Counted from the first letter of the stretch, positions 3,001-62,322 are shown. The stretch is DNA of 64,000 nucleotides from Candidatus Krumholzibacteriia bacterium (GCA_016744705.1 JADGDU010000005.1:3762-67761), one strand, 5' to 3'. Translations and numbers: made by a program. Notes: generated by a model not told the origin, from the letters alone.

Positions 3001-4480
3001 CTTTGCTCTGCAAACCGCACCTGAAAGCACCGACAACACTGTTGGTCCTTATGATGTGGTCTTTGAAGTGAGCGATTTCAGTGGCATTGATGAGACTCAT
3101 TTCTACTACACGTCCAGTAGCACAGGCGGCCCTTTTGAATTGCCGATGCAAGCCGAGGGTCCTGCTGATACCTGGCGTGTTTCCATTCCTGGCCAGGCCA
3201 GTGGAACTCTGGTCCAGTACTGGATGACCAGTTTAGATTTACTGACCTTCAGTAGCAGCGAACCAGCTGGAGCACCTTTTGATGTGCACAGCTTTACGGT
3301 TTCTGAAACGATGGTTGTTTATTCCAGTGCTATGGAAAATGCAGGGGACTGGACTGGTGGCATCAGCGGTGATGACGCTTCTTCCGGTGTCTGGGTCAAC
3401 GTTGATCCCAATGCGGTTATTGAGGGCCAAATGGTCATCGTTCCTGAAGATGATCACAGTGTGCCGGGAACCATGTGCTGGATCACCGGTCAGGATCCTG
3501 TAGGCAGCGCCCAGGGAGCCAATGATATTGATGGTGGAACCACCACCCTCGAATCGCCTGTGATGGATATCAGCAGCTATGATGGCCTTGAAGTTCAGTA
3601 CCACCGCTGGTACACCAATGATACGGGCTTCAGTCCCAACGAAGATTATTGGGTTGTCCAAGCCAGGAACCAGAGTGGTGCTTGGGTTAATCTGGAAAAT
3701 ACATCATCCAGCAACCGCTCCTGGCAACAGATGAACTTTATGCTGAACGATCACCTGACTCTGGGCAATGAGACCCAGTTCCGTTTTGTGGCTTCAGACC
3801 TGGGTGGTGGCTCTGTTATTGAAGCTGGTGTGGATGATTTCATGCTGATCAATTCAGTGGTCATCACCGATGAGGCTGCTCCTGCAGTGAGCATGGTTGT
3901 TCCCAACGGTGGGGAGAGCTTTGGTATTGGTTCAACTATGGATATTGATTGGAACCAGAGCGATGATATCGGTGTGGTTCACGTGGAAATCCTGTTGAGC
4001 ACCGATGGTGGCGCCAGCTTCGATCAGGTCATCACAGAAGGAGCCTTGAATGGATCTTTCAACTGGACTGTGAACGCTTTGGCTGGTTCGACCAACCGGG
4101 TGAAGGTCATTTGCCACGATACCGCCGGCAATAGCACCGAAGCTATCTCGGCAGCCAACTTCACCATCGGTGGCGTCAGCGCTGCGGGTGATGTGCCTGC
4201 TGGCCGCGTGGTTCTGTCCCAGAACGCTCCCAACCCATTCAATCCTCGCACCGAGATCAAATTCTCAGTGCCCACGGATCAGGATGTCTCACTGCGCATC
4301 TACAACGTGGAAGGCCGTTTGGTTCGCACCCTGATTCAGGGACGCCAAATTGCCGGTGCCCACAGTATTATGTGGAGTGGACAGAATGACCAGGGTGGCA
4401 TGGTTGCATCCGGTCTGTACTTCTATCGTCTGAACACCGATAGTGGCACCTTGACCCGTAAGATGACTCTGTTAAAATAA
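5..4480 (+). CDS. Giant secreted gingipain-like (peptidase C25 family) multidomain protein with a T9SS/Por C-terminal sorting domain. The N-terminus lies upstream of the window.
   Basis: The ORF is open from the window edge. Candidate C25 catalytic His (…YHGEGDHEY…) and Cys (…MIPTCDTGSF…) regions are present. There are CARDB/Ig-like segments and a C-terminal NPFNPRTEIKF…LRIYNVEGRLVRTL…GLYFYRL…KMTLLK, typical of a type-A T9SS CTD. Confidence 0.75.
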   Translation: MYESEILGYERNGQVMDGLGSYLIIHPNNATVLANLQPLINWRARQGYNVVVASTAVAGSNTTSIKNYIQGQYNSLSIPLEFVVLVGDANGSVSIPTYQEGLSGYHGEGDHEYTMLEGGDLLADVHLGRLSVTSTSMLADVVSKIVKYESEPYTSDSGWFTKAGLAGDPGASGYSCIWISQWVKHQLLDLNYTQVDTIWSGNFTTAMMSTINAGESIFTYRGYYGMSGMNSSHIGSLSNGEKLPFAMIPTCDTGSFSSDTDCRSEAFFRNANGGGIAAIGTATSGTHTRYNNCMFQGVMEGVLNSGDSRVGPGLTRGKLHLYRNYIERESEKVEIWSTWNNLMGDPATALWSGVPRSPSVEYPTTITSGANSLPVTVRNGGLAWVGARVTVYRSNQIQVSAITDANGQVNLPLSGLVDGEYLVTVTGRNLKPYLGGVNVGDLPAFVNFSALSVDDDNNGDSQGNGDGQINPGEMLELGIDLINTGTGGVSNVTAELSSMNDMVTVTNGSATYGYIGSGGISSGQDNFLVNVDPAIPGGSAIPMELEATDGSSTWTSLVNMVVQGPAAEAVAYRLGSVTINPGQTSTLEVTLGNTGNLPAGAFQATLSSDSRWVTVTDASANFGAMAVGAQSTNTVDTFAINAGVECYPGHVATLTLDVVFAEGGTASVPVLLTVGSATSTDPVGPDRHGYYAFDNTDTDYEFAPQYNWIETAPENGGQGVSVGLSDFGRYDDDVVIVDLPFAFNFYGQSFTKMSICSNGWISFGATNIRSYRNWTLPSAGAPDNMIAAFWDDLYVRSNNSGIYSWYDAANHQLILQWENVGTAYSPSGDQDETFQIILQDPAFNAGDTGDGIITINYKDVNLTDSETGYHSVGIQNEDRDDAVLYSYFNLHPGGAAPLVDGRSITFRTVIPQAQGTLSGEVTNAGNGVAVDGAVVSVVGTGLNLMSTVDGQYQTNLTIGTYDVAIHHPSFAPDTTFGVVILEDVETVVDFALVDTMGPVFALQTAPESTDNTVGPYDVVFEVSDFSGIDETHFYYTSSSTGGPFELPMQAEGPADTWRVSIPGQASGTLVQYWMTSLDLLTFSSSEPAGAPFDVHSFTVSETMVVYSSAMENAGDWTGGISGDDASSGVWVNVDPNAVIEGQMVIVPEDDHSVPGTMCWITGQDPVGSAQGANDIDGGTTTLESPVMDISSYDGLEVQYHRWYTNDTGFSPNEDYWVVQARNQSGAWVNLENTSSSNRSWQQMNFMLNDHLTLGNETQFRFVASDLGGGSVIEAGVDDFMLINSVVITDEAAPAVSMVVPNGGESFGIGSTMDIDWNQSDDIGVVHVEILLSTDGGASFDQVITEGALNGSFNWTVNALAGSTNRVKVICHDTAGNSTEAISAANFTIGGVSAAGDVPAGRVVLSQNAPNPFNPRTEIKFSVPTDQDVSLRIYNVEGRLVRTLIQGRQIAGAHSIMWSGQNDQGGMVASGLYFYRLNTDSGTLTRKMTLLK

Positions 4481-14154: not shown

Positions 14155-14877
14155 TCAACCTGCACCTAATTTCACCAATTTCTTTTCCGTGGCTTTCTGC
14201 TCCAGAAGCGTTTGCATCACTAGAGAAATCATGCTCTCCTGGGATAAGCGGGTCGAGTTCAACACCAGATCGTAATTGTCATCCTGGCCCGGCTCCTGGT
14301 GAAAAACCTGCCGTACGAAATCTGTCCTTTTGGCATCAGTTTTTCTCACCAGCATGCGGGCTTCGGCTTTGCTCAATTCCAATCTGCTACGAAGTCTATC
14401 AATTCGGATACGCTCCGAAGCCACCACACGTACTCTCAAGTCTGCCTTTTCTCCCAGAATGAGATTGGCGCCCCGGCCCAGAAAAACGACACCACCACGG
14501 GCAGCCAAGCTGCTGACAATTCGCACCAGATCGCCATAATATTGATCTTTCAGAAAAATCCTTTGGCTGAAAACCCCTTTCACCCAAAGGCGAGTCTGGC
14601 TGATGGTGTTTTCGTCCAGATCAGCCACCAAGCTATCTTCCAGTTGGCGGTCTTTGACAATTTTCTGCACCATGGATTGGTCATGAAGATCCAGGCTGAG
14701 TTTGTTGGCCAGATCTTCAGCCAGAAACCGGCCTCCACTGCCAGCCATGCGGGAAATTGTGATGACCGGTTGGCGGGGAGAATGGGGGGGACTGGCAGAA
14801 TCGGGAATCAGATCCCGCAAACTATTCCAGTGATTAATTTGGCGCAGAATGAGTTTTTCAGTGACTGGCAGTGACAT
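14155..14877 (-). CDS. Cytidylate-kinase-like family protein (P-loop NMP-kinase fold).
   Basis: The protein reads …ISRMAGSGGRFLAEDLANKLSL…VVFLGRGAN…RV…SERIRIDRL…, which resembles the cytidylate kinase-like family. I place the start at the internal Met (MSLPVT…), 35 codons into the tracked ORF. Confidence 0.6.
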   Translation of the reverse strand: MSLPVTEKLILRQINHWNSLRDLIPDSASPPHSPRQPVITISRMAGSGGRFLAEDLANKLSLDLHDQSMVQKIVKDRQLEDSLVADLDENTISQTRLWVKGVFSQRIFLKDQYYGDLVRIVSSLAARGGVVFLGRGANLILGEKADLRVRVVASERIRIDRLRSRLELSKAEARMLVRKTDAKRTDFVRQVFHQEPGQDDNYDLVLNSTRLSQESMISLVMQTLLEQKATEKKLVKLGAG

Positions 14878-15050
14878 GATCCAACTCCCTGGAAATTTCT
14901 CGGAAACGTCTTGCTGGGTTTCCGATGGCATGGGCACTTGGCAGTATGTCAATAAATTAACATTGATCCAGACCTGTGACAATGATTGCTATGGGAAATC
15001 TTTTCCCGAGTTTGTTGTGCAAATATCCCCGGAAGAGTTAAACTAGTTCC

Positions 15051-16199
15051 ATGAAAATTCTGCATATCGGCAAGTACTACCCTCCTTATCGGGGGGGAAT
15101 GGAAACAGTTCTGGAGAACCTGGTGGAAGGGCTTCTGGATGCCGATGTTTGTGTGAATACTTTGGTTTCAGGGCAGGATACTCAGGACCGAATTTCTACT
15201 GTCAAAGGGCCTCAGAGTGGCAAAACAGGCCAATTGGTCAGGGTCTCTCGTGCGGGTTTGTTCCAGTCCCAGCCGCTGAACACCACCTTGCTGTCTCAAC
15301 TGCGCAAACAACTTGAGTTATTCCAACCCGATCTGGCGCATCTGCATTTACCCAATCCCCTGGCGATTCTGGCCTGGTCTATCCTGGCCCGATGTTATGG
15401 TTCCCGCATGCCGGCATTGGCCGTCTGGTATCATGCAGATATCACGCGCCAGCGCCTGGGAGCCCGCCTTTTGAAGCCCCTGGTTCGCGGCCTTCTCAAT
15501 GAATGCGAAGGCATTTGTGTATCCACAGAATCCCTGGCCAGGAATTCCGAAATTCTGAGTGGTTTTCCCGAAAAAATTGAAGTCATTCCTTTTGGAATAT
15601 CGCCTGAACCCTGGACTAATATTGGACTCCGGCCGGGTGAGCGTTTTCTCTTTGTGGGGCGGTTGGTCCCGTATAAGGGATTGGAAGTTTTGATTGAGGC
15701 CATGGAAAAGGTACCTGGGGCCTTTCTGGATGTGGTGGGCAGCGGCCCTCTGGAAGATGCCCTTGAACATTCTATCCAGCAGAAAAATTTATCCTCCCGG
15801 ATCACTTTTCATGGGTCCTGCAGCCCTGAACAATTGGCCCAACTGATGGCGTGTGCCCGGGCCCTGGTATTGCCCAGCCTGGACCAAAGTGAAACCTTTG
15901 GATTGGTGCAGTTAGAGGCCATGGCTTCCGGTGTTCCCGTCATTGCCAGCGACTTGAAATCCGGAGTATCAGATGTGGGGGTAGCCGGTGAAACCTGCTT
16001 GCTGGTGCCGCCCGGTGATCCGGTGTCCTTGGCCCATGCCTTACATAACATCCAAAATGACGAAAACCTTGCCAGTCAGTTGGGCCGTGCTTCTCGGCAG
16101 CGATTCAACCAAGCCTACACCCGAGAGATCATGGTTGGCAAAGCTCTGACCTGGTACCGGAAACTGTTGAGCCCCGGTTATCCGAAAGGCCCCTCATGA
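15051..16199 (+). CDS. Glycosyltransferase family 4 (GT-B, retaining).
   Basis: It opens MKILHIGKYYPPYRGGME… and has the E-x7-E region …FGLVQLEAMASGVPVIASD…. It is first in an operon whose genes overlap by 4 nt. Confidence 0.85.
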   Translation: MKILHIGKYYPPYRGGMETVLENLVEGLLDADVCVNTLVSGQDTQDRISTVKGPQSGKTGQLVRVSRAGLFQSQPLNTTLLSQLRKQLELFQPDLAHLHLPNPLAILAWSILARCYGSRMPALAVWYHADITRQRLGARLLKPLVRGLLNECEGICVSTESLARNSEILSGFPEKIEVIPFGISPEPWTNIGLRPGERFLFVGRLVPYKGLEVLIEAMEKVPGAFLDVVGSGPLEDALEHSIQQKNLSSRITFHGSCSPEQLAQLMACARALVLPSLDQSETFGLVQLEAMASGVPVIASDLKSGVSDVGVAGETCLLVPPGDPVSLAHALHNIQNDENLASQLGRASRQRFNQAYTREIMVGKALTWYRKLLSPGYPKGPS

Positions 16200-16996
16200 A
16201 TTTTTCATTTGTCGATCCCTGGCACCTCTTTTTACCTCGTGACGGTGGGCATGTGGTAGCCCTGAGTGGCTCAGGAGGAAAGACCAGCCTGTTGCAGGTT
16301 TTTGCAGCCCAGTTGGTCAGCGAAGATGTGAAAGCCATATTCACCTGCACCACCCGGACCGAAGCCTTGCCAGGTTTTCCCGTTTACGATTTGGCGGATG
16401 TGGAAGCCTCGGACCCCGAACATTTACCCGCCCATTTTTATGTACGAGACAGCATCACAAAGGATGAAAAGTGGTTGGGTGTGGAAGCAGATGATGTGGA
16501 CCGATTGTCCTCAAAATTTTCCGACCGGGTTATTGTAGTGGAAGTGGATGGTTCGGCCTGCCTGCCCCTGAAGTTTTACCAACCAGAGGAACCCGTATGG
16601 CCTCGTCTGACCTCTCTGGCCGTCGTGGTTATGGGTACTTCTGCAGTGGGTGAAGCTGCCGGTGATGTTGTTCACCGTTTTGACAGACAAGAATTTCCTC
16701 CCTTGAAAGAATTGAAAGCCCATGACGTGTGGCAGTGGGATCATTCTTATACTCTGCTGACCGCCCCAGGCGGGTATTTGGAACAAGTGCCTGCAGATAT
16801 ACCCGTGGTCCTGGCCATGACCAGTTTGGCCCAGCAGGATGATAGCATTGGGATGTTTGAGTTTGTGGGCAAAGTCATGGAAAATGATCGAATGCCCTTG
16901 GTGGTTTTCTGTGAAACGACCGGTGAAAATCCTTCTTTTCGAACGTCATGCCGGCGGGATGAAGATGATGAACATCCTGTGGGAACGGAAGAATGA
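16196..16996 (+). CDS. yqeC: YqeC-like putative selenium-dependent molybdenum hydroxylase accessory protein (P-loop).
   Basis: It has an N-terminal …VVALSGSGGKTSLLQVF…FTCTTRTEA… P-loop followed by a TTT block, as in the YqeC family. It is about 265 aa. The call is from memory and I did not search it. Confidence 0.5.
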   Translation: MNFSFVDPWHLFLPRDGGHVVALSGSGGKTSLLQVFAAQLVSEDVKAIFTCTTRTEALPGFPVYDLADVEASDPEHLPAHFYVRDSITKDEKWLGVEADDVDRLSSKFSDRVIVVEVDGSACLPLKFYQPEEPVWPRLTSLAVVVMGTSAVGEAAGDVVHRFDRQEFPPLKELKAHDVWQWDHSYTLLTAPGGYLEQVPADIPVVLAMTSLAQQDDSIGMFEFVGKVMENDRMPLVVFCETTGENPSFRTSCRRDEDDEHPVGTEE

Positions 16997-17634
16997 ATCC
17001 AGTGAGCAAACAGTTGGCTGTGATCATGGCCCGGGGTGCAAGCCAGCGCATGGGGCAGCCCAAAGGGTTGTGCCGGTTGCCAGATCAGGATGATTGTTTT
17101 CTCACCCAGGTCGTGCGTTTGTACCGTGGCTTGGAAATTCCCGTACTCTTGGTTTTACGCCCTGAAGATGAAGCTGCTTACAGTGAAATTGTCCGCCATG
17201 AGGATGTTGAAATACTGGCCGCCGCTGGTGGTGGGGACACAGCCCAAACCATGAAGTTGGCCCTGGAGTGGGCCCAGGCCAAGGGGCTGACGCCGGATAT
17301 ATATTGGGCTCATCCGGTGGATATGCCTTTGGTGAGCGCCCAATCAATTTCCCTGCTGTTGGCAACTGCTGCCAAAAACGATATGGCAGCCTGGCGGCCT
17401 GAATTCCACCAGCAGCCTGGACATCCGGTTCTGTTTCCAGGGCCCCTGTTGGCTTTGGTTCTGACCGATGAAAATATTGAAACGTCCATGTCCAGAATTT
17501 GGAAAAAGGCCATGGCTCAATCTCTCGTTTTACCGATAAATTTATTGAAGGTGGCCGATCCCGGTGTTATTGCCGATTTTGATACACCTGATCAATTGCG
17601 TTTGACCTCCGAAAAGAAAGCCCCAGAATCATGA
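16993..17634 (+). CDS. MobA/MocA-like molybdenum-cofactor nucleotidyltransferase.
   Basis: …LAVIMARGASQRMGQPKGL… is the NTP-transferase glycine-rich loop. It is about 210 aa and lies between yqeC-like and xdhC genes. Confidence 0.7.
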   Translation: MNPVSKQLAVIMARGASQRMGQPKGLCRLPDQDDCFLTQVVRLYRGLEIPVLLVLRPEDEAAYSEIVRHEDVEILAAAGGGDTAQTMKLALEWAQAKGLTPDIYWAHPVDMPLVSAQSISLLLATAAKNDMAAWRPEFHQQPGHPVLFPGPLLALVLTDENIETSMSRIWKKAMAQSLVLPINLLKVADPGVIADFDTPDQLRLTSEKKAPES

Positions 17635-18509
17635 GCCAGAAAAAACAACCCATCACCGATCGTGACATCTACGAAACCCTGGCCCGGATGACCGCAGCCA
17701 ATGAAGAGGGTGTTCTGGTCACGGTGGTGCACACGCGCCTGTCCACGCCTCGTCATGAAGGCAGTAAAATGGTGGTTCATGCCAATGGCAGCATCACTGG
17801 TAGCGTGGGCGGAGGGCGTAGTGAAGCCAAAGTCATCGAAGAGGCCGCTAAAGTTTTTGGCGACCGGCAATGCCGCACACTTGAATTGGACCTGGCTAAA
17901 GGTTTGGGTGTTTGTGGTGGCAATATGAAAGTATTTCTGGAGCCGGTTCTGCGTTCGGCACCCTTCATTATTATTGGTGCTGGGCATGTGGGCCGGGCCG
18001 TGGTTGAAGTGGGCCAAACCTTGCCTTTCCATTTTATTCTGGTGGATGACCGTCCCGAATTTCTCGAACCCTGGCAGGATAATCCTGGGGTTAAAACCAT
18101 TTTGGCCGGCCCGGCAGACATTTGCGAAAAATTATCCGTGCCCGGCCATGGGGCCTTACTTTTGGCCAGCCGGAACCATAAATTGGATCGGGCCTACCTT
18201 GAGGCGTCCTTGAGAGCCGAAATGGAATCAGGCAAAACCTTTCCCTTTTTAGGTGTGTTGGGCAGCCAATCCAAAGCCGAGATCATCTACAATGAAATCT
18301 GCGCCAAGGGAGATGATTTTGCCCAACGAATGACTACTGTGCAAATGCCGGTAGGGTTGGATGTGGGGGCAGAAACCCCTGCAGAAATAGCCCTGAGTGT
18401 CTTCGCCGAAGCCCAGGCGGTGCTGCGGGGGGTAGAGCTTTTGCGCAACGAAGAGGGCACCATTGTGGGCGTCCCCTTGCACCGAACCCGTAAACCAAAA
18501 TTGAGTTAA
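17631..18509 (+). CDS. xdhC: XdhC/CoxI-family molybdenum-hydroxylase maturation factor.
   Basis: It has the N-terminal XdhC_CoxI region (…VLVTVVHTRLSTPRHEGSKMVV…GSVGGG…) and a Rossmann segment (PFIIIGAGHVGRAVVEVG). Confidence 0.8.
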   Translation: MSQKKQPITDRDIYETLARMTAANEEGVLVTVVHTRLSTPRHEGSKMVVHANGSITGSVGGGRSEAKVIEEAAKVFGDRQCRTLELDLAKGLGVCGGNMKVFLEPVLRSAPFIIIGAGHVGRAVVEVGQTLPFHFILVDDRPEFLEPWQDNPGVKTILAGPADICEKLSVPGHGALLLASRNHKLDRAYLEASLRAEMESGKTFPFLGVLGSQSKAEIIYNEICAKGDDFAQRMTTVQMPVGLDVGAETPAEIALSVFAEAQAVLRGVELLRNEEGTIVGVPLHRTRKPKLS

Positions 18510-18527
18510 GAAACAAAGGCGAAAGAG

Positions 18528-19328
18528 ATGAGAAATTCTGGAGTGATTTGGATCCAGGGTGCCGGTGAACTGGCCTCGGGTGTGGGAATGCGACTGGCCC
18601 GATGTGGGTATTGCATTGTGATGGCTGAAATAGAAAACCCTGTGGCTGTGAGGCGTCTGGTTGCGTTCAGTGAAGCGGTTTATACGGGCACAGCTAATGT
18701 TGAAGGTGTGCCGGGAGTTCTGGTGGATAAACTGGATTTCCAGTTGCATCATGGCAAGGTTCAGGTCCTTGTGGATCCGCAGGGTGAGCATTTGAAAGCT
18801 GCCGGGGCTGCGGCAGTCATTGACGGCCGCATGACCAAGAAAGCACCGCAACCATTGCCATTCTCCGGCGAACTCTCCATAGGCCTGGGGCCTGGTTTCC
18901 AGTGTGGGAGGGACGCCGATATAATCATCGAAACCCACCGTGGGGCTCGCCTGGGTGAAGTCATCCGTCAGGGTGAAGCGGCCTCCAACACCGGTACTCC
19001 AGGGGTTGTAGGTGGCCAATCGGCCAAGCGAGTGGTTTATGCTACTGCCGCCGGAAAACTGGTTTCAGAACTGAGCATTGGCGATTTGGTGGAAGAGGGC
19101 CAAATGCTAGGATCAGTGGGCGGCGAGGCTATTTACGCCCGCTTGACAGGTAAAGTGCGCGGTCTGGTCCATCCACAAGCGGAACTTTCAGACGGGGAAA
19201 AGGTTGGAGATATCGATCCCCGTGGTGCGCAGGTCAATCCCGCCCTGGTCACGGACAAAGCTCTGGCCATTGGTGGTGGCATTTTGGAGGCTTTGCTGGG
19301 ATCGGGAGTTCTTCCGGTTTCCGACTGA
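18528..19328 (+). CDS. yqeB: YqeB-like selenium-dependent molybdenum hydroxylase system protein (Rossmann).
   Basis: …VIWIQGAGELASGVGMRLARCGYCIVMAEIENPVAVRRLVAFSEAVYTG… fits my memory of the short YqeB (TIGR03309-type) family. The context with yqeC, mocA and xdhC supports it. Confidence 0.5.
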   Translation: MRNSGVIWIQGAGELASGVGMRLARCGYCIVMAEIENPVAVRRLVAFSEAVYTGTANVEGVPGVLVDKLDFQLHHGKVQVLVDPQGEHLKAAGAAAVIDGRMTKKAPQPLPFSGELSIGLGPGFQCGRDADIIIETHRGARLGEVIRQGEAASNTGTPGVVGGQSAKRVVYATAAGKLVSELSIGDLVEEGQMLGSVGGEAIYARLTGKVRGLVHPQAELSDGEKVGDIDPRGAQVNPALVTDKALAIGGGILEALLGSGVLPVSD

Positions 19329-19478
19329 TGATATCAGCCCTTCATTGACAAACATGGGGGGAAGCGGTTACTCTTAGTGAAGTCCCACCCGCTTTGGGAC
19401 ATTTCTGTGTAAAAAACAGGGGATCACCCCCTGAATTAAGGCTTACGGCCTTTTTAATCCCCTTGGGAGGTCCAATTC

Positions 19479-20657: not shown

Positions 20658-20701
20658 TCATCTAACTTCTAGATGATCCTTCTTTGATGTGTCATATTAT
20701 G

Positions 20702-20736
20702 CCCGCGGATCCTTGCTGGATCTGCGGGTTTTTTTT
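20702..20736 (+). terminator. Rho-independent terminator.
   Basis: The hairpin cccgcggatcc…ggatctgcggg is followed by T8. Confidence 0.7.
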
Positions 20737-20756: not shown

Positions 20757-21926
20757 GTGAAAGGTATTGCCTTGGGACGTTTAGATAAATTGCCACCATA
20801 TTTGTTCTCCGCCATCGATCAGGCCAAGGCCGCAGCTCTGGCCAAAGGGGTCGATGTGGTGGATTTGGGTATTGGAGATCCGGACCGCCCAACACCCGCC
20901 TCCCTGGTGGAAGTCATGGCTGCTGCTGTGGCCGATCCCGCTTTTCATCGGTACCCGGCCCAGCGCGGCACACCTCGCCTGCGTCAGGCTATCGCCGCTT
21001 GGTTAAAGAGGCGGCATCACACTGTAGTGGACCCCAATACCCAGGTTTTGGTTCTCATTGGCAGCAAGGAAGGCCTTGGCCATTTGCCCACCACCTGCGT
21101 GGAAGAGGGCGATAATGTTCTCGTACCGGATTTGGGTTATCCCGTGTATGGCCAGGCTACATTGTTAGCCGGTGGCGAGCCCAGAGTTTTCTCTCTGGCT
21201 GCGGAGCGGGGTTTTCTGCCGGATTTTGCGGAACTGGAAAAATTGGCTGATGAAAAAACGCGAATGATTTTTCTCAACTATCCCAACAACCCCACCGGGG
21301 CTGTGGCGGATGAAGAGTTTTGGAAGCGGATGATTGCCTTTACGACCAAGCATAACATTCGCCTGGTTAATGACGCCGCCTACCTGGAAGTGGTGCCTGG
21401 TGGAGAGGCGGCCTTGAGCCTGCTGCAGGTTGCCAGCCCCAGCAAAGATCGGGTCATCGAATTGCACAGTCTTTCCAAGATGTTCAATATGACGGGCTGG
21501 CGCATTGCCTTTGCCGTGGGGCATCCTGAATTGGTGGGCGATCTGGGCCGTGTCAAAGAAAGCATGGACAGTGGTGTCTTCAATGCAGTCCAAGAAACAG
21601 CAACCTACGCTTTGGGAGAGGCTTTTGAGGGATTGCTGGCCGAGGTGATGGATGTATACCCTAAGCGCCGCCAGGTGATCAATGCTGCTTTGGCCAAAAT
21701 GGGAGTTGAGGTTTTCCCTTCGCCGGCCACCTTCTATGTTTGGGCCAAAGTTCCCACAGAAGAATCATCCATTGAATTTTGTGGAAGGGCCCTGGAAGAA
21801 ATTGGCACCGTCATCACGCCGGGGCTGGGTTTTGGCACCGGGGGCGATGGTTGGTTCCGTATCAGTCTGACGGCAAGTGATGAATCAATCGCCGAAGGGG
21901 CACGCCGCTTGGAGGGTTGGAAATGA
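20757..21926 (+). CDS. dapL: LL-diaminopimelate aminotransferase (DapL-type class I aminotransferase).
   Basis: The N-terminus …RLDKLPPYLFSAIDQAK…VDLGIGDPDRPTP… is characteristic of DapL. It is a 389-aa fold-type I aminotransferase with a GTG start. Confidence 0.75.
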   Translation: MKGIALGRLDKLPPYLFSAIDQAKAAALAKGVDVVDLGIGDPDRPTPASLVEVMAAAVADPAFHRYPAQRGTPRLRQAIAAWLKRRHHTVVDPNTQVLVLIGSKEGLGHLPTTCVEEGDNVLVPDLGYPVYGQATLLAGGEPRVFSLAAERGFLPDFAELEKLADEKTRMIFLNYPNNPTGAVADEEFWKRMIAFTTKHNIRLVNDAAYLEVVPGGEAALSLLQVASPSKDRVIELHSLSKMFNMTGWRIAFAVGHPELVGDLGRVKESMDSGVFNAVQETATYALGEAFEGLLAEVMDVYPKRRQVINAALAKMGVEVFPSPATFYVWAKVPTEESSIEFCGRALEEIGTVITPGLGFGTGGDGWFRISLTASDESIAEGARRLEGWK

Positions 21927-22297
21927 ATGATTGCATCGATTTGCGGGGGATACAAATTTATGCCTATCACGGAGTTCTGGATGCTGAAAAAAAGCTGGGC
22001 CAGCGCTTTGTTGTGGATGTCACTCTTTTTGGTGATTTTTCCCAGGCAGCCCGCACCGATGACTTGAAATATGCCATGGATTATTCCCAGGTTCACACCC
22101 TGGTTTGTGATGCCATGACCCAGAAAAACTTTGATTTGATTGAAGCTGCTGCGGGCCATTTGTGCACTGTGTTGCTGGACAAAACCATGGCTGAAAAGGT
22201 GGAAGTGGTTGTGGAAAAAACCACACCACCCATTCCCGGTTTCACAGGGCAGGCCCTGGTGAGACTGGTGAGGGATCGGCAATGGCTGAAGAGTTGA
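21917..22297 (+). CDS. folB: Dihydroneopterin aldolase.
   Basis: The 126-aa protein reads …IYAYHGVLDAEKKLGQRFVVDV… and is adjacent to folK. Confidence 0.88.
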   Translation: MEMNDCIDLRGIQIYAYHGVLDAEKKLGQRFVVDVTLFGDFSQAARTDDLKYAMDYSQVHTLVCDAMTQKNFDLIEAAAGHLCTVLLDKTMAEKVEVVVEKTTPPIPGFTGQALVRLVRDRQWLKS

Positions 22298-24417: not shown

Positions 24418-25302
24418 TTGGAATTGTGGCATACAAGGAACGATCTGAAGGCCATGGCGCCTTTGAAACAAGATGGTCCCTTGGTCTTGGTTCCGACCAT
24501 GGGAGCGCTTCACGAAGGCCATCTGGACCTGGTGAGGTTGGGCTCCCAATTAGGCCAAGTGGTGGTCACTGTATTTGTCAATCCCACCCAATTTGGACCC
24601 AACGAAGATTTTGGATCGTACCCGCGCACTTTGGAACGAGATCTGGAACTGCTTTCCCAGTTGCCTGTGGCCGGAGTTTTTTCCCCGGACACATCAGAGA
24701 TTTATGGGGCCGGTCTTGAAGTGACGGTTCAGCCCGGCCACCGTGGTCTGGGATTGTGCGGTGGCGATCGTCCCGGACATTTTGCCGGTGTCTTGACGGT
24801 GGTGGCTAAGCTTTTTGGCTTGATCCAACCCGACATTGCCATTTTTGGGCGCAAAGATGCCCAGCAGTGCCTGGTCATTGGTCAAATGGTGGAAGATCTC
24901 AAGATGCCCATCCAGCTGGTGGATGCGTCCACCCGACGCGAGCCCGATGGTTTGGCCATGTCTTCTCGGAATCGCTACCTCTCAGAAAGCCAACGACGCC
25001 AGGCTCTGTGTCTCTCGAAAGCGCTCCAAGCTGGGAAAGAAGCCATCGTTGATGGTTGCCGCAGCCGGTCCGAAATTCAAAACACCATGTTGGATCTGCT
25101 ACAGGAAGCTGACTTGGTGGAATACGCAGAAGTGCGCCAGGTGCCTGGTCTGGGTGATGATGAAATCATTTCCGGACGCACGCTGCTGGCTGTGGCCGCC
25201 AAAGTGGGGCCCGCCCGTTTGATTGATAATTTCGTTTTGGAAATCAACCCTGAAAATATGGTGACCGATAGCTATTTGCTGGGCACCGGGAGAGAATCAT
25301 GA
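24418..25302 (+). CDS. panC: Pantoate--beta-alanine ligase.
   Basis: It reads …LVPTMGALHEGHLDLV… with the HxGH motif. Confidence 0.9.
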   Translation: MELWHTRNDLKAMAPLKQDGPLVLVPTMGALHEGHLDLVRLGSQLGQVVVTVFVNPTQFGPNEDFGSYPRTLERDLELLSQLPVAGVFSPDTSEIYGAGLEVTVQPGHRGLGLCGGDRPGHFAGVLTVVAKLFGLIQPDIAIFGRKDAQQCLVIGQMVEDLKMPIQLVDASTRREPDGLAMSSRNRYLSESQRRQALCLSKALQAGKEAIVDGCRSRSEIQNTMLDLLQEADLVEYAEVRQVPGLGDDEIISGRTLLAVAAKVGPARLIDNFVLEINPENMVTDSYLLGTGRES

Positions 25303-26039
25303 GCAGGACTATCGATGCTGTTATTTTAGCGGCCGGCAAAGGCACCCGAATGAAATCAGACTTGCCCAAGGTGCTGCATGAATTGGAGGGACGCCCCCTT
25401 CTGGATCATGTGATGGATACCTCTGCAGCAGCGGGCATCGATCGGATGGTTGTTGTGGTGGGACATAAGTCTGCTCTGGTGGAAGAGACCTGCGGGCGAC
25501 CAGGAATTGAATTTGTTCTGCAGGAACCCCAGTTGGGCACCGGTCATGCTGTGCAAATGGCGGTGCCTGCTCTGCGCTCTGGTGGATACTGCGTCGTTCT
25601 GGCGGGTGATGTGCCTTTACTGCGAACCGAAACGTTGCAACGCCTGGTGGAAGGAACCATTTCTTCCGGGGCTTCTGCTGTGGTGCTGACTTGTGTGGTG
25701 GATGACGCGGCTGCTTATGGCCGGATCATCAAAGACGACCAGGGACAGGTTCTGAAAATTGTGGAAGCAGTTGATGCCACACCGGCCGAACTGGCCGTGG
25801 GGGAATACAACACTGGTGTTTTTTGTTTCAAAACTGAAAAGCTTATCGAAGCTTTGGGCAATTTGAAAACCGACAACAAACAGGGCGAGTATTATCTGAC
25901 CGATACGGTGGCCTGGCTGGTGGAGCAGGGACAACCTGTGGAAGCGGTCATCACCGAGGACCCCGATGAAGTCATCGGAATCAACACCGTGGACGAATTG
26001 GCTGGCGCCGCCACTCTGCTGGCCCGGCGCAACAGCTGA
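25299..26039 (+). CDS. Sugar-phosphate nucleotidyltransferase (GlmU N-terminal-domain-like, without the left-handed beta-helix acetyltransferase domain).
   Basis: It reads …AVILAAGKGTRMKSDLPKVLH… and …GTGHAV…. At only 246 aa it is the pyrophosphorylase domain alone. Confidence 0.7.
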   Translation: MSRTIDAVILAAGKGTRMKSDLPKVLHELEGRPLLDHVMDTSAAAGIDRMVVVVGHKSALVEETCGRPGIEFVLQEPQLGTGHAVQMAVPALRSGGYCVVLAGDVPLLRTETLQRLVEGTISSGASAVVLTCVVDDAAAYGRIIKDDQGQVLKIVEAVDATPAELAVGEYNTGVFCFKTEKLIEALGNLKTDNKQGEYYLTDTVAWLVEQGQPVEAVITEDPDEVIGINTVDELAGAATLLARRNS

Positions 26040-27697: not shown

Positions 27698-29980
27698 TTG
27701 AATCTGGCCCAACTTCTACAACAGTTAAAAACTGAAGAGAAATTCACAAGGCATGTGACCCGTTGGCAAACGCTTCCTCCCGAGCCGGCCATCTCTGCTG
27801 CGTACCCCGAAAGCCTGGACCAGAGGCTGGTGGATGTGATGCGCGGCCGGGGTATCGAAGAACTTTACAGCCATCAGGCTGAAGCGGTTCAGTTGGCTGC
27901 AGGCGGACACTCTTTTGTGGTTCCTACACCCACCGCCAGTGGTAAAACCCTCTGCTATAATCTCCCGGTTCTGAACACCATCCTGAACGATCCCCAGGCT
28001 CGGGCCTTATACCTTTTCCCCACCAAAGCCCTGAGCCAGGATCAGATGCATGAAGTGCACGGCATCGTCGGCGATCTGGGTGTGGATATCAAAACGTTCA
28101 CCTTCGATGGCGACACTCCCGAAACGGCCCGCCGAGCCATCCGCAGCAGTGGGCATATCGTGGTGACAAATCCAGATATGTTACACCAGGGAATCCTGCC
28201 CCATCATACTTTATGGGTGAAACTTTTTGAGAACCTCAAGTACGTGGTGGTGGATGAGGTGCATCAGTACCGGGGTGTTTTTGGTAGCCACGTGTCTAAT
28301 GTGCTGCGGCGTTTGCGCCGGGTGGCTCAATTCTATGGTGCGGACCCCCAATTTATCTGCTGCTCCGCCACCATTGCCAACCCCAAGGAATTGGCCGGCC
28401 GCCTGACGGGCTTACCCATGGAGGAAATTTCCCGCAATGGTGCGCCCAGAGGTGAAAAACACTTCATCTTTTACAACCCGCCTGTGGTCAATCAGGAATT
28501 GGGAATTCGGCAATCGGTGATCAAAACCACACGCCGTATTTCTGAGCGTTTCATGTCCAGCGGCACCCAATTGATTGTTTTTGCCCGCAGCCGCATGCGA
28601 GTGGAGCTGTTGCTCACCTACCTGGAAAAAGCCGGCCGTCGTGTGGGCATTAAAAGCGGCGAAGTTCGAGGTTACCGTGGAGGGTATTTGCCGGGTGAGC
28701 GCAGGGCCATTGAACAGGGTTTGCGGGACGGTACTGTTTCCACCGTGGTCTCTACCAACGCCCTGGAGTTGGGTATTGATATCGGGCGGCTGGATGTGTG
28801 CGTCATGGCCGGTTACGCCGGCACCGTGGCCAGCACCTGGAAGCAGGCCGGTCGGGCCGGTCGGCGGCAAAATCTCAGTGCCGTGGTTCTGGTGGCATCC
28901 AGTAGTCCTGCCGATCAATATATCATCAACAACCCAGACTATTTTTTCGGCCGCTCCCCAGAACACGCCACCCTTGATCCGGACAACCTTATCATTCTCA
29001 TCAGCCATCTCAAATGTGCTGCTTTTGAATTGCCTTTCACCACGGATGAAAGGTATGGCGATCAAAAAATTGAGGAGATCCTCGATTACCTGACAGAACA
29101 GGGTGTGCTGCACCGTAGTGGGGGGCGGTACCACTGGATGGCCGACACTTACCCCGCCGAGGAAGTTAGCTTGCGTAGCGCCGCTCCTGATAATGTGGTG
29201 ATCATCGATCAAAGCGTTCCCGGTGGCCGAATCATTGGTGAGATGGATCTTTTCAGCGCCCAGGAAATGCTCCATGACGATGCCGTCTACATGCACGGGG
29301 CCCAGCAATACCATGTCGATCGTTTGGACTGGGACCGGCGGGAAGCCCATGTGCAGCCGGTGCAGGTTGACTACTACACCGACGCCCAGCGCAAATCTGA
29401 ACTCAAAACTCTGACGGCTGAAGAAACTTTACCCTTCACCATGGGCCAATTATTGGTGGGCGAAGTGGGGTTGGTGGCCAAGGTCACTGTTTATAAGAAA
29501 ATCAAACTGGGGACCCACGAAAATGTGGGAGCAGGGCGGGTGCATTTGCCGGAAATGGAAATGCACACCGTTAGTTTCTGGTGGGAATTGCCCGAGAATG
29601 TGGCCGAAGATCTCACCGCTGAAGGGTTTGATCTGGGTGACGGGTTGAAAGGTTTGTCCCACTTGCTGGGCAGAGTGGCTCCGGTTTTCATCATGGCCGA
29701 TCCTTCAGACTTGCATGCCCTGGCCATGGTGCGCTCGCCTTTCACCGGGAGTCCTACCCTGTATATCTACGATGCTTTCCCCGGTGGGGTTGGGTATGCC
29801 CGGCGCATCCATCAGCAGTTTGCAGAAATCTGCCAATCGGCTCAGGACCATTTGCATGCCTGCCCCTGTGAAAGGGGTTGTCCTTCCTGTGTTGGCCCCG
29901 CCACCGAAAGCGGAGATACGGCCCGCCAGGCCGCTGCCTGGATATTAGCCAGAGCGTGTAGCCCATCTGCCGAGGGTTGA
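27698..29980 (+). CDS. mrfA: MrfA-like DEXH-box DNA helicase with a C-terminal DUF1998 Zn-ribbon.
   Basis: It has motif I (VPTPTASGKT), motif II (DEVH) and motif VI (QAGRAGRR). The C-terminal four-Cys cluster is …CPCERGCPSCVGP…. Confidence 0.8.
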   Translation: MNLAQLLQQLKTEEKFTRHVTRWQTLPPEPAISAAYPESLDQRLVDVMRGRGIEELYSHQAEAVQLAAGGHSFVVPTPTASGKTLCYNLPVLNTILNDPQARALYLFPTKALSQDQMHEVHGIVGDLGVDIKTFTFDGDTPETARRAIRSSGHIVVTNPDMLHQGILPHHTLWVKLFENLKYVVVDEVHQYRGVFGSHVSNVLRRLRRVAQFYGADPQFICCSATIANPKELAGRLTGLPMEEISRNGAPRGEKHFIFYNPPVVNQELGIRQSVIKTTRRISERFMSSGTQLIVFARSRMRVELLLTYLEKAGRRVGIKSGEVRGYRGGYLPGERRAIEQGLRDGTVSTVVSTNALELGIDIGRLDVCVMAGYAGTVASTWKQAGRAGRRQNLSAVVLVASSSPADQYIINNPDYFFGRSPEHATLDPDNLIILISHLKCAAFELPFTTDERYGDQKIEEILDYLTEQGVLHRSGGRYHWMADTYPAEEVSLRSAAPDNVVIIDQSVPGGRIIGEMDLFSAQEMLHDDAVYMHGAQQYHVDRLDWDRREAHVQPVQVDYYTDAQRKSELKTLTAEETLPFTMGQLLVGEVGLVAKVTVYKKIKLGTHENVGAGRVHLPEMEMHTVSFWWELPENVAEDLTAEGFDLGDGLKGLSHLLGRVAPVFIMADPSDLHALAMVRSPFTGSPTLYIYDAFPGGVGYARRIHQQFAEICQSAQDHLHACPCERGCPSCVGPATESGDTARQAAAWILARACSPSAEG

Positions 29981-29981
29981 G

Positions 29982-31205
29982 ATGGATTTAAAAAAAAGAC
30001 TGGCCAACATGGACCGTCTCTCCCGCCAGAATGTTGCGCCATCTGCAGGGTCTCGACCTCAGCAGAAAGCCAATGCAACCACCTTAAAAAAATCTTTAAA
30101 TTGCTTGCAGCTTATAAGCTCACAGGGTCAAGAGGAAGAAATTTGGACCAGAGATTATACTGATGATTTTTCTTTGAGTATCACAGAATTACCCTCTTTG
30201 GTTGGCTTTTTCACACGGGCGCATGAAGCTTCACCCGGTTTGGAAGATATTCTTTTCCTGGACACGGAAACCACGGGACTGTCCGGGGGAACCGGTACCA
30301 TTGCTTTTCTGGTGGGGGTGGGCTGGGTCCGGAATAATATATTCCACAGTCGGCAATACTTTCTGCCTGATTTTCATCATGAACACGCCATGTTGAATGA
30401 ACTGGCCTCTCTGGCTCAGAAATTTGAAGTGGTGATGACCTTCAATGGCGCCTCTTTTGATTTGCCTCTTTTGCGCACGCGGGCTTTGATGAACAGGCTG
30501 AAAGATCCCTGCGCGGACTTGGTCAGTTGGGATTTGCTTGTGCCGGGACGCCGCTTGTGGGGACGCATTTTTCCCAATTGCAAACAGCAAACCCTTGAAA
30601 AAGGACTGCTACAAATGAGCCGCGATTCCCGGGATATTGAGGGTGCCCTGATTCCCCAGACCTGGTTCGACTTCCTGCAAACAGCAGAGCCGGATTTGAT
30701 GGGAAGAGTTTTGCATCATAACCAGCGCGACTTGCTGGGGATGGCGGGGATTTTTGCACAGGTTCTGGACAAGGCCCAGTGTCTGCATGATAATATACCA
30801 CAGGAAACGCCCTGGAAAGAGGCCTGGTCCCTGGGGCGTATTGCCGAAATTGCCCGGATCCAGGAGCAAGCAGCCACCTGGATACAATGTGCGGCTCTGG
30901 CCAACGGAAAAGACTCTGAATGTCGGTTTCTGGAAGCCCGTTTTGTGGCCGATGCAATCCGACTTTTGAAACGACAGGGCCATTGGGATGATGTGGAAAT
31001 GATCATCAAAAAAGCATTGGTGGCGGGTCAGGATGAGCCGTGGTTACACCGGGAAGCGGCGATTCTTTATGAACACAGAAGAGCCCATTTATCTAAAGCC
31101 CTGCTTCATGCCCGTCAGTGCCAGGAGCCTGGGCGTATTTTGCGTCTGGAAAAGAAAATCCTAAAAATTCAAGAGGTTAAAAATGGCCCTACCGACACGC
31201 ACTGA
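29982..31205 (+). CDS. mrfB: MrfB/YprB-like RNase-H-fold exonuclease with C-terminal TPR-like repeats.
   Basis: …ILFLDTETTGLSGGTGTIAFLVGVGW…MTFNGASFDLPLL… shows the DEDD-like acidic residues of a PolB-like exonuclease domain. The C-terminal half is helical repeats. The gene starts 2 nt after mrfA. Confidence 0.65.
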   Translation: MDLKKRLANMDRLSRQNVAPSAGSRPQQKANATTLKKSLNCLQLISSQGQEEEIWTRDYTDDFSLSITELPSLVGFFTRAHEASPGLEDILFLDTETTGLSGGTGTIAFLVGVGWVRNNIFHSRQYFLPDFHHEHAMLNELASLAQKFEVVMTFNGASFDLPLLRTRALMNRLKDPCADLVSWDLLVPGRRLWGRIFPNCKQQTLEKGLLQMSRDSRDIEGALIPQTWFDFLQTAEPDLMGRVLHHNQRDLLGMAGIFAQVLDKAQCLHDNIPQETPWKEAWSLGRIAEIARIQEQAATWIQCAALANGKDSECRFLEARFVADAIRLLKRQGHWDDVEMIIKKALVAGQDEPWLHREAAILYEHRRAHLSKALLHARQCQEPGRILRLEKKILKIQEVKNGPTDTH

Positions 31206-34299: not shown

Positions 34300-35373
34300 A
34301 TGAGAGTCATAGCTCTGGCCAATCAAAAAGGCGGCTGTGGGAAAACCACTACAGCGACAAATTTGGCTGCCACCCTCTCCAGCATGGGTAAAAAGGTCCT
34401 ACTCATTGATAATGATCCCCAGGGGCATGCCACTTTGGCTTTTGGTTTTCGGGAAAGAGATTTCACCCTCAGCACTTACGATCTTTATCTCACTTCAGAT
34501 ATTTTGATTGAAGATGCTTTCCTGGACATTAGTTCCAATTTGCACCTGGTACCTGCTGGCATTGAATTGAGCGCCGTGGAGCAAACTCTTGCTCGGGAGT
34601 CAGAAAAAGAGTACCGACTCCGCAATAATTTGCGCCGCTCTGCCATGCCCTATGACTATGTCCTTATCGATTGTCCTCCCAGTGTTAGCATCCTCACTTT
34701 TAACGCTTTGCTGGCTTCCAGTGAAATTCTTATTCCCGTGGACCCCAGTTATTACAGCTTGCAGGCTGTCAAGAAAATGCGCGAAACTCTGTCTGTTCTG
34801 CGGGAGAAAAAGGGCCATGATATTATCCCGCATGTGCTCATGTCGGATTTTGATACGCGGCCCCGTTTTGTGCGGAAACTGATGGCGGAACTGGACGACC
34901 TTTATGAAGGCGAACTCCTCGACACAGTGATCCATCATACGGTGCGCTTTAAGGAAGCCGCTGGCATGGGGGTGCCCATCATCCAGCACGATCCCAATTC
35001 TCGAGGAGCCCACGACTTCAGGGGGCTGGCCAGGGAATTATCGGAGCAGGAAGTGCAAGTCAGTGTGGCCGCTCTGGACCATTGGGTGGCTTTGCTACAC
35101 GGACCACAGGTGAGCCAGGCCGGTGTTGTTTTTGAAGCAGATTTCCCAAGGGCCAAAACCGTTCGCATCACCGGTTCATTCTGTAGTTGGTCTGCCAAAG
35201 GGCTACCTTTGAAATGCCGGGAAGATGGAATATGGGAATGCCATCTGGCTCTGGAAGAAGGGGATCACGAGTACCGCTTCATTGTGGACGGCTCCTGGTT
35301 GCCTGATCCCCACAACACAGAAACTACAGCCAATGAATTTGGGGGAGCCAACTCCCTGGTGGTGGTTCCCTGA
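34300..35373 (+). CDS. ParA/MinD-family P-loop ATPase fused to a C-terminal AMPK-beta-like CBM48 glycogen-binding domain.
   Basis: The N-terminus is the deviant Walker A, …IALANQKGGCGKTTTATNLA…LIDNDPQGH…. The C-terminal 90 aa, …VRITGSFCSWSAKGLPL…WECHLALEEGDHEYRFIVDGSWLPDPHN…FGGANSLVVV, matches the AMPK-beta GBD/CBM48 pattern. Confidence 0.8.
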   Translation: MRVIALANQKGGCGKTTTATNLAATLSSMGKKVLLIDNDPQGHATLAFGFRERDFTLSTYDLYLTSDILIEDAFLDISSNLHLVPAGIELSAVEQTLARESEKEYRLRNNLRRSAMPYDYVLIDCPPSVSILTFNALLASSEILIPVDPSYYSLQAVKKMRETLSVLREKKGHDIIPHVLMSDFDTRPRFVRKLMAELDDLYEGELLDTVIHHTVRFKEAAGMGVPIIQHDPNSRGAHDFRGLARELSEQEVQVSVAALDHWVALLHGPQVSQAGVVFEADFPRAKTVRITGSFCSWSAKGLPLKCREDGIWECHLALEEGDHEYRFIVDGSWLPDPHNTETTANEFGGANSLVVVP

Positions 35374-36197: not shown

Positions 36198-36275
36198 TTA
36201 ATTTTCGGTGGACCCACATCCCCTCATGCCTATAGTTTGGGATTCCATTTGGTCTCCGGGAGGAGTCCCGGCTCT

Positions 36276-36860: not shown

Positions 36861-36865
36861 ACACA

Positions 36866-39420: not shown

Positions 39421-39561
39421 GTGGCTCACGCGGACTTTGGGGCGGAACTCAATTGAGAATGAGAAGAAATAACAATTGCTCAACTAGAGGCATTGGAGTA
39501 AGTTCTTTTTCTATCATACTGTAGACGGGATTTCAAAGGTACTGAGTTTCAGGGAGGAACC

Positions 39562-40776: not shown

Positions 40777-40814
40777 ACCACTCTTTCTTTGAGTGGAGGC
40801 AGTCCCCTGGGGAG

Positions 40815-41495: not shown

Positions 41496-41501
41496 ACCGG
41501 A

Positions 41502-42800: not shown

Positions 42801-43205
42801 TACTTTTGTGAGGGAATATTACAAAAATTTAATAAACATCATTATGGCAAAATAACATAATATTGTGATGTAGGCCAGCGTTTCTTCGAGTTAAGACGTG
42901 AATTTGAGGCATTGAACTTTTTGTATGTTTGTGGTATAGTCATCTTTCGTATCCATTAGAAATCTCTGTGGGGGCGCCAATTGGCGAAAGAGGGCTTTTC
43001 TACGTATGCTTTCCCTTGTTTGATTCACGGAATATTGGATCCGTCAGAATTCTTAAGGGTTCCTGCGTTCCGGATTCGGTCCTGGGTCTGATTTTGGGGC
43101 CATTTAGACTGTAACAAAAACCTGAAGTTCATTCATAATACAATAATATGCCAACAGTAAACCTGGATCCTTTTCGAGGTGGTTCTGTTTCCATGGAGGA
43201 ATTGC

Positions 43206-60559: not shown

Positions 60560-60568
60560 AGGACTGCC

Positions 60569-62310: not shown

Positions 62311-62322
62311 GGGAGAAGCGGT

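Follow-up and report, generated by a model that had tools for sequence, protein, structure and literature searches.

A 64,000-nucleotide stretch of the Candidatus Krumholzibacteriia bacterium assembly GCA_016744705.1 (JADGDU010000005.1:3762-67761; referred to here as the window) carries a unit of five closely packed genes, in which a gene for a family 4 glycosyltransferase (GT4) is followed by yqeC, a gene for a MobA/MocA-like nucleotidyltransferase, an XdhC-like gene, and yqeB. The organism belongs to the Krumholzibacteriota, and in this phylum the accessory set is fixed as one compact transcription unit. The balance of the evidence tips slightly towards the last four genes being the accessory cofactor-maturation set of the "selenium cofactor" trait of molybdenum hydroxylases of the xanthine dehydrogenase (XDH) family, with the GT4 as a passenger and the client enzyme encoded elsewhere.

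YqeB and YqeC mark the third bacterial use of selenium (PMC11448449; bioRxiv 10.1101/2025.04.24.650524). Phylogenetic profiles support TIGR03309, TIGR03172 and TIGR03310 as accessory families of the selenium-dependent molybdenum hydroxylases (Haft & Self 2008, PMC2276186), and genetic work in C. difficile has shown that yqeB, like selD, is needed for selenium-dependent use of xanthine and urate (PMC11448449). Compared with the known accessory set, the arrangement described here is new in being phylum-wide, placed in a housekeeping block, led by a GT4 gene, split in its YqeB, and marked by sequence signatures of its own. The lineage, whose organisms are uncultured, offers a natural experiment in which four accessory genes stay together, in a fixed place and at phylum depth, away from any client enzyme.

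Arrangement and conservation of the five-gene unit

The five open reading frames (ORFs; Table 1) were called at exactly the coordinates and on the strand given by an earlier reading of the sequence alone (the sequence-only reading). The first three junctions are overlaps of 4 nt, as that reading had it; they are ATGA overlaps with the sequences ...TCATGAAT, ...GAATGAAT and ...TCATGAGC, and the xdhC-like gene is separated from yqeB by 18 nt (18510-18527), not by 19 nt. Tight packing is the rule in the window: of 43 same-strand neighbour pairs 13 overlap, and in seven the overlap is exactly 4 nt. Since unrelated genes, such as panC and that of a GlmU-type transferase, are among these pairs, overlaps as such carry little weight. 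It is the retention of the five-gene unit in all 40 informative related species that goes beyond chance.

A genome scan at one genome per species yielded 80 yqeB loci, 45 of which (L003-L047, with YqeB 79-47% identical) constitute the clade of the window; the best homologues of both YqeB and the GT4 come from Candidatus Krumholzibacteria or Krumholzibacteriota, or from metagenome-assembled genomes (MAGs). The order GT4-yqeC-transferase-xdhC-like-yqeB is found in each of the 40 informative clade loci, the other five being cut by contig ends, and on four more contigs found from the YqeB or the GT4 side, two of which are 3.8 and 4.7 Mb. Neighbouring genes are conserved as well. Upstream are groES and groEL (plus a kinase-like gene in one subclade), and downstream are genes for a tetratricopeptide repeat (TPR) protein, a dapL-like aminotransferase, FolB, FolK, a deoxynucleoside kinase, PanB, PanC, an N-terminal GlmU-type transferase (GlmU-N) and a HIT protein. 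The shared order and neighbours reflect vertical inheritance.

Across the related loci the median spacing at the four internal junctions is -4 nt, whereas yqeB and the TPR gene are never less than 90 nt apart (42 of 42 loci, median 128 nt), and the five genes thus form a discrete unit. In the window this unit closes with a gap containing a weak hairpin (Table 1), and a strong terminator-like hairpin is first seen past the TPR gene (20701-20729). Co-transcription of the five genes, the GT4 gene included, is well supported. A sigma-70 scan upstream of the GT4 gene was uninformative (5 sites against 4.9 expected, which is chance level). No tRNA and no Rfam family at its gathering score was found in the window, nor a riboswitch for the molybdenum cofactor (Moco), even at E<=1.

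Ten MAGs titled "uncultured Fibrobacteraceae" (L015, L019, L021, L025, L027, L028, L031, L041, L043 and L045) contain the complete Krumholzibacteriota-type block, as does one titled "Gemmatimonadales" (L018). These titles are probably taxonomic mislabels.

The proteins encoded by the unit

The five proteins of the unit and 40 other ORFs of at least 150 aa across the window were scanned against Pfam, and the five were also compared with curated families. The sequence-only reading had left its YqeB and YqeC assignments to be settled by profile hidden Markov models (HMMs), and both stand. YqeB scores 261.8 bits against TIGR03309 (cutoff 220), covering profile positions 2-254 of 256, and YqeC scores 93.1 bits against TIGR03172 (curated cutoff 73.05) and matches PF19842 at 6.5e-24 (85.3 bits vs 27.6). 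The YqeC P-loop, GSGGKTS, is intact, with G25, G27, G28, K29 and the Thr conserved inside and outside the clade; the P-loop together with E116, D118, G119 and K126 is common to the YqeC proteins of other phyla and E. coli, and an N-terminal extension is specific to the clade.

The product of the third gene is MobA-like (PF12804, NTP_transf_3, 7.6e-17). It scores 71.3 bits against the MocA model TIGR03310, below the cutoff of 186.45, in an alignment that spans the full model, and 74.1 bits against the DVU_1551 family NF045665, below 315. The MocA-model score alone is not specific, since the unrelated GlmU-type gene of the window reaches 63.4 bits, over a shorter stretch. The window protein has the motif IMARGASQRMGQPKGL, with MARG where MocA has (T/L)AAG (TAAG in E. 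coli MocA), and the clade consensus is (I/V)(M/L)ARGxSxRMGxPKGL. Residue 14 is Arg in 43 of 43 clade members, and Ala in 16 of the 19 MocA-like neighbours of yqeB in other phyla. The residues at the (T/L)AAG position of MobA and MocA are reported to set the choice of nucleotide. The "MocA" of the sequence-only reading consequently survives at the superfamily level only, the score being below the equivalog cutoff and the motif ARG instead of AAG, and we regard the third gene as encoding a predicted divergent, clade-specific MobA/MocA-like nucleotidyltransferase.

The fourth protein has both domains of the XdhC/CoxI family above gathering score (PF02625, 1.5e-20, 73.3 bits; PF13478, 4e-27, 95.6 bits) and matches PDB entry 2we7 (E 5.7e-18). 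Its best model is that of an aldehyde-oxidoreductase-type maturation factor (NF045664, XdhC_rel_AOR), yet its 171.6 bits are far below the cutoff of 350, and it reaches 112.4 bits against the xanthine dehydrogenase XdhC model TIGR02964, below 161.6. The E. coli YqeB protein is a 541-aa fusion, and the XdhC-like protein is 33% identical to its residues 2-246 (E 6e-32) while the window YqeB is 42% identical to residues 270-524 (255 residues, E 6e-59). Laid side by side, the two window proteins cover both halves of E. coli YqeB from end to end, so the pair is a split form of that protein. The XdhC-like gene lies directly upstream of yqeB, and in one clade member (L025) the two are fused. The fourth protein had been called an XdhC insertase, but it reaches neither XdhC cutoff, and the N-terminal half of an E. 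coli-type YqeB is the more fitting description.

Forty-eight positions of YqeB are conserved both in the clade and in other phyla, and there are also systematic differences. The motif ETxRGHxLG has its His in all 36 outside-clade sequences, and the clade has Ala there in 40 of 48. The clade motif is ETHR(G/E)A (ETHRGA in the window), with a near-invariant His three residues earlier, and it looks as if the clade His had moved by three residues. Cys126 is present in 83% of the clade and nowhere else, and the Cys found in 61% of the others at window position 238 never occurs in the clade. An AlphaFold2 model of YqeB (mean predicted local distance difference test score, pLDDT, 90.8) has a Rossmann-like N-terminal part and a C-terminal barrel-sandwich hybrid domain of ~70 aa. 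Foldseek found no whole-chain analogue of the model among solved structures (template-modelling score about 0.25), and it matched only residues ~175-235, to barrel-sandwich domains of the BCCP/biotinyl/lipoyl type, without the modified lysine. This predicted biotinyl/lipoyl-type fold is in line with the weak similarity to AccB reported for the C. difficile protein (PMC11448449). There is no solved homologue for either YqeB or YqeC, and YqeB has no Pfam family.

The first protein of the unit contains both GT-B domains (PF00534, 4.9e-36, 124.3 bits; PF13439, 1.4e-15, 58.2 bits) and, as read in translation, the EX7E motif ETFGLVQLE; it is a predicted retaining glycosyltransferase of the GT-B fold. 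No NCBIfam equivalog was reached (the best was EpsE, 90 bits vs a cutoff of 400), and its PDB sequence matches are generic GT4 enzymes, namely SPS, BshA, PimA, MshA and the tetrahydrobiopterin (BH4) glucosyltransferase. SenB is the GT-B selenosugar synthase of selenoneine synthesis; judged by entry names, nothing SenB-like turns up in the 25 listed of the 39 NCBIfam families matched, or in the 57 PDB chains with E<=1e-5. The GT4 proteins of the clade constitute an orthogroup (at least 45% identical, at least 313 bits) below which the next scores are at most 235 bits. Identity does not fall below 49% among the best 120 homologues, and those with a name are Krumholzibacteria by label, apart from mislabelled MAGs. 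The orthogroup appears restricted to the clade.

The nearest relatives outside the clade (30-44% identity, at most 235 bits) are GT4s of lipid-linked glycan synthesis, which share the EX7E motif and GT-B domains with the operon GT4; the latter differs in forming its own orthogroup and in never occurring away from yqeC in the loci examined. Where these relatives have extra domains they are tandem GT4s or fusions of a GT4 to Bac_transf, a sugar-phosphate transferase, and this is the architecture of lipid-linked glycan synthesis. Among them there was no fusion of a related GT4 to YqeC, an NTP transferase or XdhC. A 548-aa "GT4" (P0192) was considered as a possible fusion and was rejected, its tail being an Arg-rich out-of-frame read-through.

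The sequence-only reading had described the GT4 gene as translationally coupled to yqeC and as an unexpected member of such a locus, and had asked whether the linkage is conserved in related genomes. It is conserved, in all 40 informative loci, and none of 16 yqeB loci from other phyla carries a GT4, in support of that reading. The coupling is a different matter. The GT4-yqeC junction is an overlap in 65% of the loci and at most 30 nt in 95%, but control pairs of unrelated genes in the same block are as tight or tighter: an overlap of the dapL-like gene with folB is seen in 37 of 37 loci, folB and folK are at most 30 nt apart in 37 of 37, and the GlmU-N and HIT genes are at most 30 nt apart in 96%. 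The overlap is therefore real but no tighter than in housekeeping pairs, and it does not establish membership. With unrelated pairs equally tight, fusions of glycan type only, and no GT4 at the 16 yqeB loci of other phyla, the GT4 is most probably a co-transcribed passenger, an envelope or lipid-linked glycan enzyme that shares the transcript.

Linkage to hydroxylase genes and the role of the unit

The window was searched by tblastn with E. coli XdhA/B/C, XdhD, YgfK, YgfM, SsnA, SelD, MoaA-E and MoeA/B, and neither this search nor the Pfam scan revealed a hydroxylase subunit, selD or a Moco-biosynthesis gene in its 64 kb. Linkage was then compared among loci with at least 6 kb on both sides, 27 from the clade and 16 from other phyla. 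No clade locus has any hydroxylase, ygfK, ssnA or selD gene nearby (0/27), whereas 12/16 of the others do, and a hydroxylase large subunit gene is nearby in 0/27 and 9/16, respectively; a GT4 gene is present in 27/27 and 0/16. Moco-biosynthesis genes are likewise lacking within 6-10 kb in the 27 clade loci. The clade counts share a single ancestry and are not independent, so that Fisher tests on this contrast overstate its significance. The description of the set as an orphan is therefore borne out both in the window and in the ±6-10 kb around it in 27 related genomes. This status is not in itself without precedent, since C. difficile yqeB and four of the 16 outside-clade loci are likewise unlinked. 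The four (L051, L071, L076 and L077, from Desulfarculia and Anaerolineae) have yqeB, three of them with yqeC, and no hydroxylase gene within 10 kb.

Comparison with known systems shows how the unit departs from them. The E. coli genes yqeB-yqeC-mocA(ygfJ) encode the same four protein types, with an NTP_transf_3 transferase adjacent, but they are inside a 23-gene purine/hydroxylase region, whereas those of the window are in a housekeeping block. The window also differs from E. coli in gene order, in the leading GT4, in the division of YqeB between two genes, in having ARG rather than TAAG or LAAG in the transferase, and in having ETHRGA rather than ETNRGH in YqeB. In C. difficile, yqeB (CD630_34780) and yqeC are likewise markers of the trait located away from selD, and yqeB is away from the xdh genes, between upp and comEB among pyrimidine genes (PMC11448449). 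The two C. difficile genes are apart from each other, with yqeC near xdhA1 and mocA, whereas the four of the window are contiguous with no hydroxylase near. Loci from Anaerolineae, Atribacterota, Bacillota and Thermincola (L049, L055, L056, L058-60, L067, L078 and L082) encode a YqeB 40-46% identical to that of the window with YqeC and a MocA-like protein adjacent, but have genes for XdhA, XdhB, the iron-sulphur subunit, YgfK, SsnA or SelD within 10 kb, and no GT4. The Pfam domains of Rhodobacter capsulatus XdhC and of E. coli MocA match those of the window proteins, which suggests by family a role in making and inserting a cofactor of the molybdopterin cytosine dinucleotide type, although both window proteins fall below the equivalog cutoffs.

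We propose the following scheme by homology. The MobA/MocA-like transferase would add a nucleotide (cytidine monophosphate in the known cases) to Mo-molybdopterin, giving the dinucleotide form, and the XdhC-like protein would bind the finished cofactor and deliver it to the apo-enzyme. YqeB and the P-loop protein YqeC may provide the molybdenum with its labile selenium (or sulphur) ligand or put that ligand in place, with YqeB working together with the XdhC-like half, its fused partner in one clade member and in E. coli. Genes for the client hydroxylase, for SelD and for Moco synthesis would lie elsewhere in the genome. This scheme is favoured because YqeC and YqeB exceed their cutoffs and the XdhC_CoxI, XdhC_C and NTP_transf_3 domains are present, because loci of other phyla that do adjoin xdhA/B/C, ygfK, ssnA or selD have the YqeC P-loop and the 48 YqeB positions in common with the clade, and because yqeB genetics and phylogenetic profiles are published and an unlinked yqeB is known in C. 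difficile. At least two Krumholzibacteriota MAGs moreover carry a gene that Prokka names "hcrA", a name for the large subunit of XDH-family enzymes; a published table has one each in two MAGs and none in most others (mBio 2024, Table S4b), and the label covers only part of the XDH family. In the literature library searched, no paper links the phylum with xanthine dehydrogenase; among papers naming both the phylum and selenium none is on this topic, and metabolic papers on the phylum are silent on molybdenum and selenium.

Several observations weigh against the proposed scheme. The transferase and the XdhC-like protein fail their equivalog cutoffs, and the transferase has Arg for the MocA-type Ala, in the motif reported to govern which nucleotide is used. 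The chemistry of YqeB may differ, because an otherwise invariant His is lost and Cys is placed differently. No hydroxylase, selD or Moco-biosynthesis gene lies in the window or near the 27 clade loci, and the unit sits in a housekeeping block of deep conservation, an unusual place for catabolic accessory genes. The GT4 orthogroup, finally, appears confined to the clade and always accompanies the cassette in the loci examined, which would also fit a functional role.

A functional role for the GT4 would mean that it glycosylates the pterin or dinucleotide cofactor, makes a sugar-linked selenium carrier by analogy with SenB, or modifies the client enzyme. It heads the unit in all 40 informative species and in two of two extra loci reached from the GT4 side, its junction with yqeC is close, its orthogroup is set apart by a score gap, the ARG and YqeB changes specific to the clade could accompany an altered product, and its PDB matches include GT4s that glycosylate small molecules, tetrahydrobiopterin among them. 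Against this stand the equally tight spacing of unrelated neighbours in the block, the fusion of related GT4s to another GT4 or Bac_transf and never to a cassette protein, the lack of a GT4 at yqeB loci of other phyla, and PDB and NCBIfam matches that are generic and without a SenB-like entry. We hold such a role to be unlikely, if a serious contender; functional membership of the GT4 in the cofactor system is not supported, and the passenger role is more likely. A further alternative is that the cassette has been re-purposed for a housekeeping role without a purine-type selenium hydroxylase, for example in serving another molybdenum or tungsten enzyme or a nucleotide-linked cofactor, possibly free of selenium. 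Re-purposing would account for the fixed place of the cassette, with groESL on one side and dapL/folBK/panBC on the other in all clade genomes examined, and also for the linkage contrast (0/27 against 12/16), the lost ETxRGH His and relocated Cys of YqeB, the Ala-to-Arg change in 43/43 transferases, and the XdhC-like protein scoring best on an aldehyde-oxidoreductase-type model and not on the xanthine XdhC model. Most Krumholzibacteriota MAGs in the published table have no Prokka "hcrA", including BB39 (L040), which carries the operon (mBio 2024, Table S4b), and YqeB or YqeC homologues may act independently of selenium in some organisms (Peng et al., PMC5029168). We nevertheless give re-purposing only an outside chance, as YqeB and YqeC pass their equivalog cutoffs with the 48 YqeB positions kept, the His may merely have shifted by three residues (ETHR vs ETxRGH), the "hcrA" label is of limited coverage, all genomes in which TIGR03309 is known so far are selD-positive (PMC2276186), and the unlinked yqeB of C. 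difficile still serves selenium-dependent purine use. A combination of the two, in which the cassette and a dedicated GT4 constitute a core housekeeping pathway for a modified cofactor with a client other than a purine hydroxylase, possibly in genomes without selD, has a slimmer chance again; the product could then be a pterin that is glycosylated or carries a different nucleotide, or else a chalcogen donor borne by a sugar.

The simplest alternatives fare much worse. One is that this is a common xdh or purine-catabolism locus with its hydroxylase genes situated a little beyond the region examined. It is suggested by the large subunit gene within 10 kb of 9/16 yqeB loci in other phyla, and a hydroxylase gene close outside the window was named by the sequence-only reading as an outcome that would overturn its own account. 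There is no such gene across the 15 kb upstream and 45 kb downstream in the window, nor within 10 kb in clade genomes that have other upstream neighbours (che genes, coaX, nadC and birA), and we consider it highly improbable. That YqeB and YqeC are wrongly named and are generic Rossmann and P-loop proteins is barely credible: neither has a solved homologue, and YqeB is without a Pfam family, but a generic identity is refuted by the curated equivalog cutoffs that both exceed and by the alignment to E. coli YqeB.

The consequences of the proposed accessory role depend on the rest of the clade genomes. If they have selD and XDH-family enzymes, the unit is simply a known system, newly and neatly arranged, in a phylum that has received little study. 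If they have no selD or no XDH-family enzymes, the accepted meaning of YqeB and YqeC as markers needs revision, and cassette genomes without selD would, if true, be the first exception to the rule that associates TIGR03309 with selenophosphate synthetase. The systematic changes in the clade, namely the relocated His and Cys of YqeB and the Arg of the transferase, single out candidate catalytic residues, and the small size of the cassette would allow its transfer into a model organism.

Other features of the window

Table 1. Coordinates of the five-gene unit, its flanking regions and two neighbouring genes.
Feature	Coordinates	Strand	Remarks
Cytidylate-kinase-like gene (PF13189), divergent from the operon	14155-14982	-	Pfam 5.1e-39; 275-aa ORF from TTG
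Presumed promoter region of the five-gene unit, divergent intergenic	14983-15050	.	sequence reading
GT4 glycosyltransferase gene, first of the unit	15051-16199	+	382-aa ORF
yqeC	16196-16996	+	266-aa ORF
MobA/MocA-like nucleotidyltransferase gene	16993-17634	+	213-aa ORF
XdhC/CoxI-like gene	17631-18509	+	292-aa ORF
yqeB	18528-19328	+	266-aa ORF
150-nt gap closing the tightly packed unit	19329-19478	.	weak hairpin 19382-19400
folB	21917-22297		126 aa, below the size scanned; named from the annotated counterpart in related loci

The gene divergent from the unit encodes a cytidylate-kinase-like protein with a weak match to the (d)CMP kinase model TIGR02173 (34.6 bits, cutoff 102). Its homologues are 242-244 aa (~30 codons shorter) and its Pfam match begins at residue 73, so translation probably begins near 14886, which would lengthen the divergent promoter region accordingly. 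The gene is found at this position in one subclade only (L001-3, L008-14, L017-18, L020, L033-34 and L086-88), and any link to the operon is tentative.

Among the other genes of the window, Pfam matches identify two large C25 peptidases, GroEL, an alkyl sulfatase, a TPR lipoprotein, the dapL-like aminotransferase, FolK, a deoxynucleoside kinase, PanB, PanC, the GlmU-N-type transferase, the HIT protein, a helicase pair, an exopolysaccharide cluster, LexA, Lon and four heptosyltransferases. The overlap between the dapL-like gene and folB (20757-22297), kept in 37/37 related genomes, is a conserved translational coupling across apparently unrelated pathways; the best NCBIfam match of the dapL-like protein is LL-diaminopimelate aminotransferase (466 bits, below cutoff). 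The GlmU-N protein (25299-26039, 246 aa) corresponds to the N-terminal uridyltransferase half of GlmU only, scoring 270 bits on a model of 447 positions, and lacks an acetyltransferase domain. Its gene overlaps panC by 4 nt and is followed by the HIT gene, an arrangement kept in relatives.

The two C25 proteins, encoded at 5-4480 (1491 aa) and 43179-48041 (1620 aa), are very large secreted proteins, with a gingipain-type peptidase domain and a FlgD-Ig C-terminal sorting domain. The first adds a Por_Secre_tail match and a CarboxypepD_reg domain, and its gene is syntenic upstream of groESL in several relatives; the second adds FG-GAP repeats. At 27698-31205 there is a helicase with DEAD, Helicase_C, WHD_HRQ1 and MZB domains (760 aa), and 1 nt further on the gene of a 407-aa RNase_H_2-superfamily protein. 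MZB takes its name from the Zn-binding domain of MrfA, and the pair presumably resembles the MrfA/MrfB DNA-repair couple. An unusual combination of domains occurs at 34300-35373, where a ParA/BcsQ-type ATPase (AAA_31) has a C-terminal AMPK1_CBM/CBM48 glycogen-binding module; this gene heads the exopolysaccharide cluster (34300-42800), which also encodes Wzy_C, a second GT4, a WecA-type Glycos_transf_4 protein and a methyltransferase. The heptosyltransferases (GT9) are four consecutive paralogues at 58300-63390, with a HAD-like hydrolase between the second and third.

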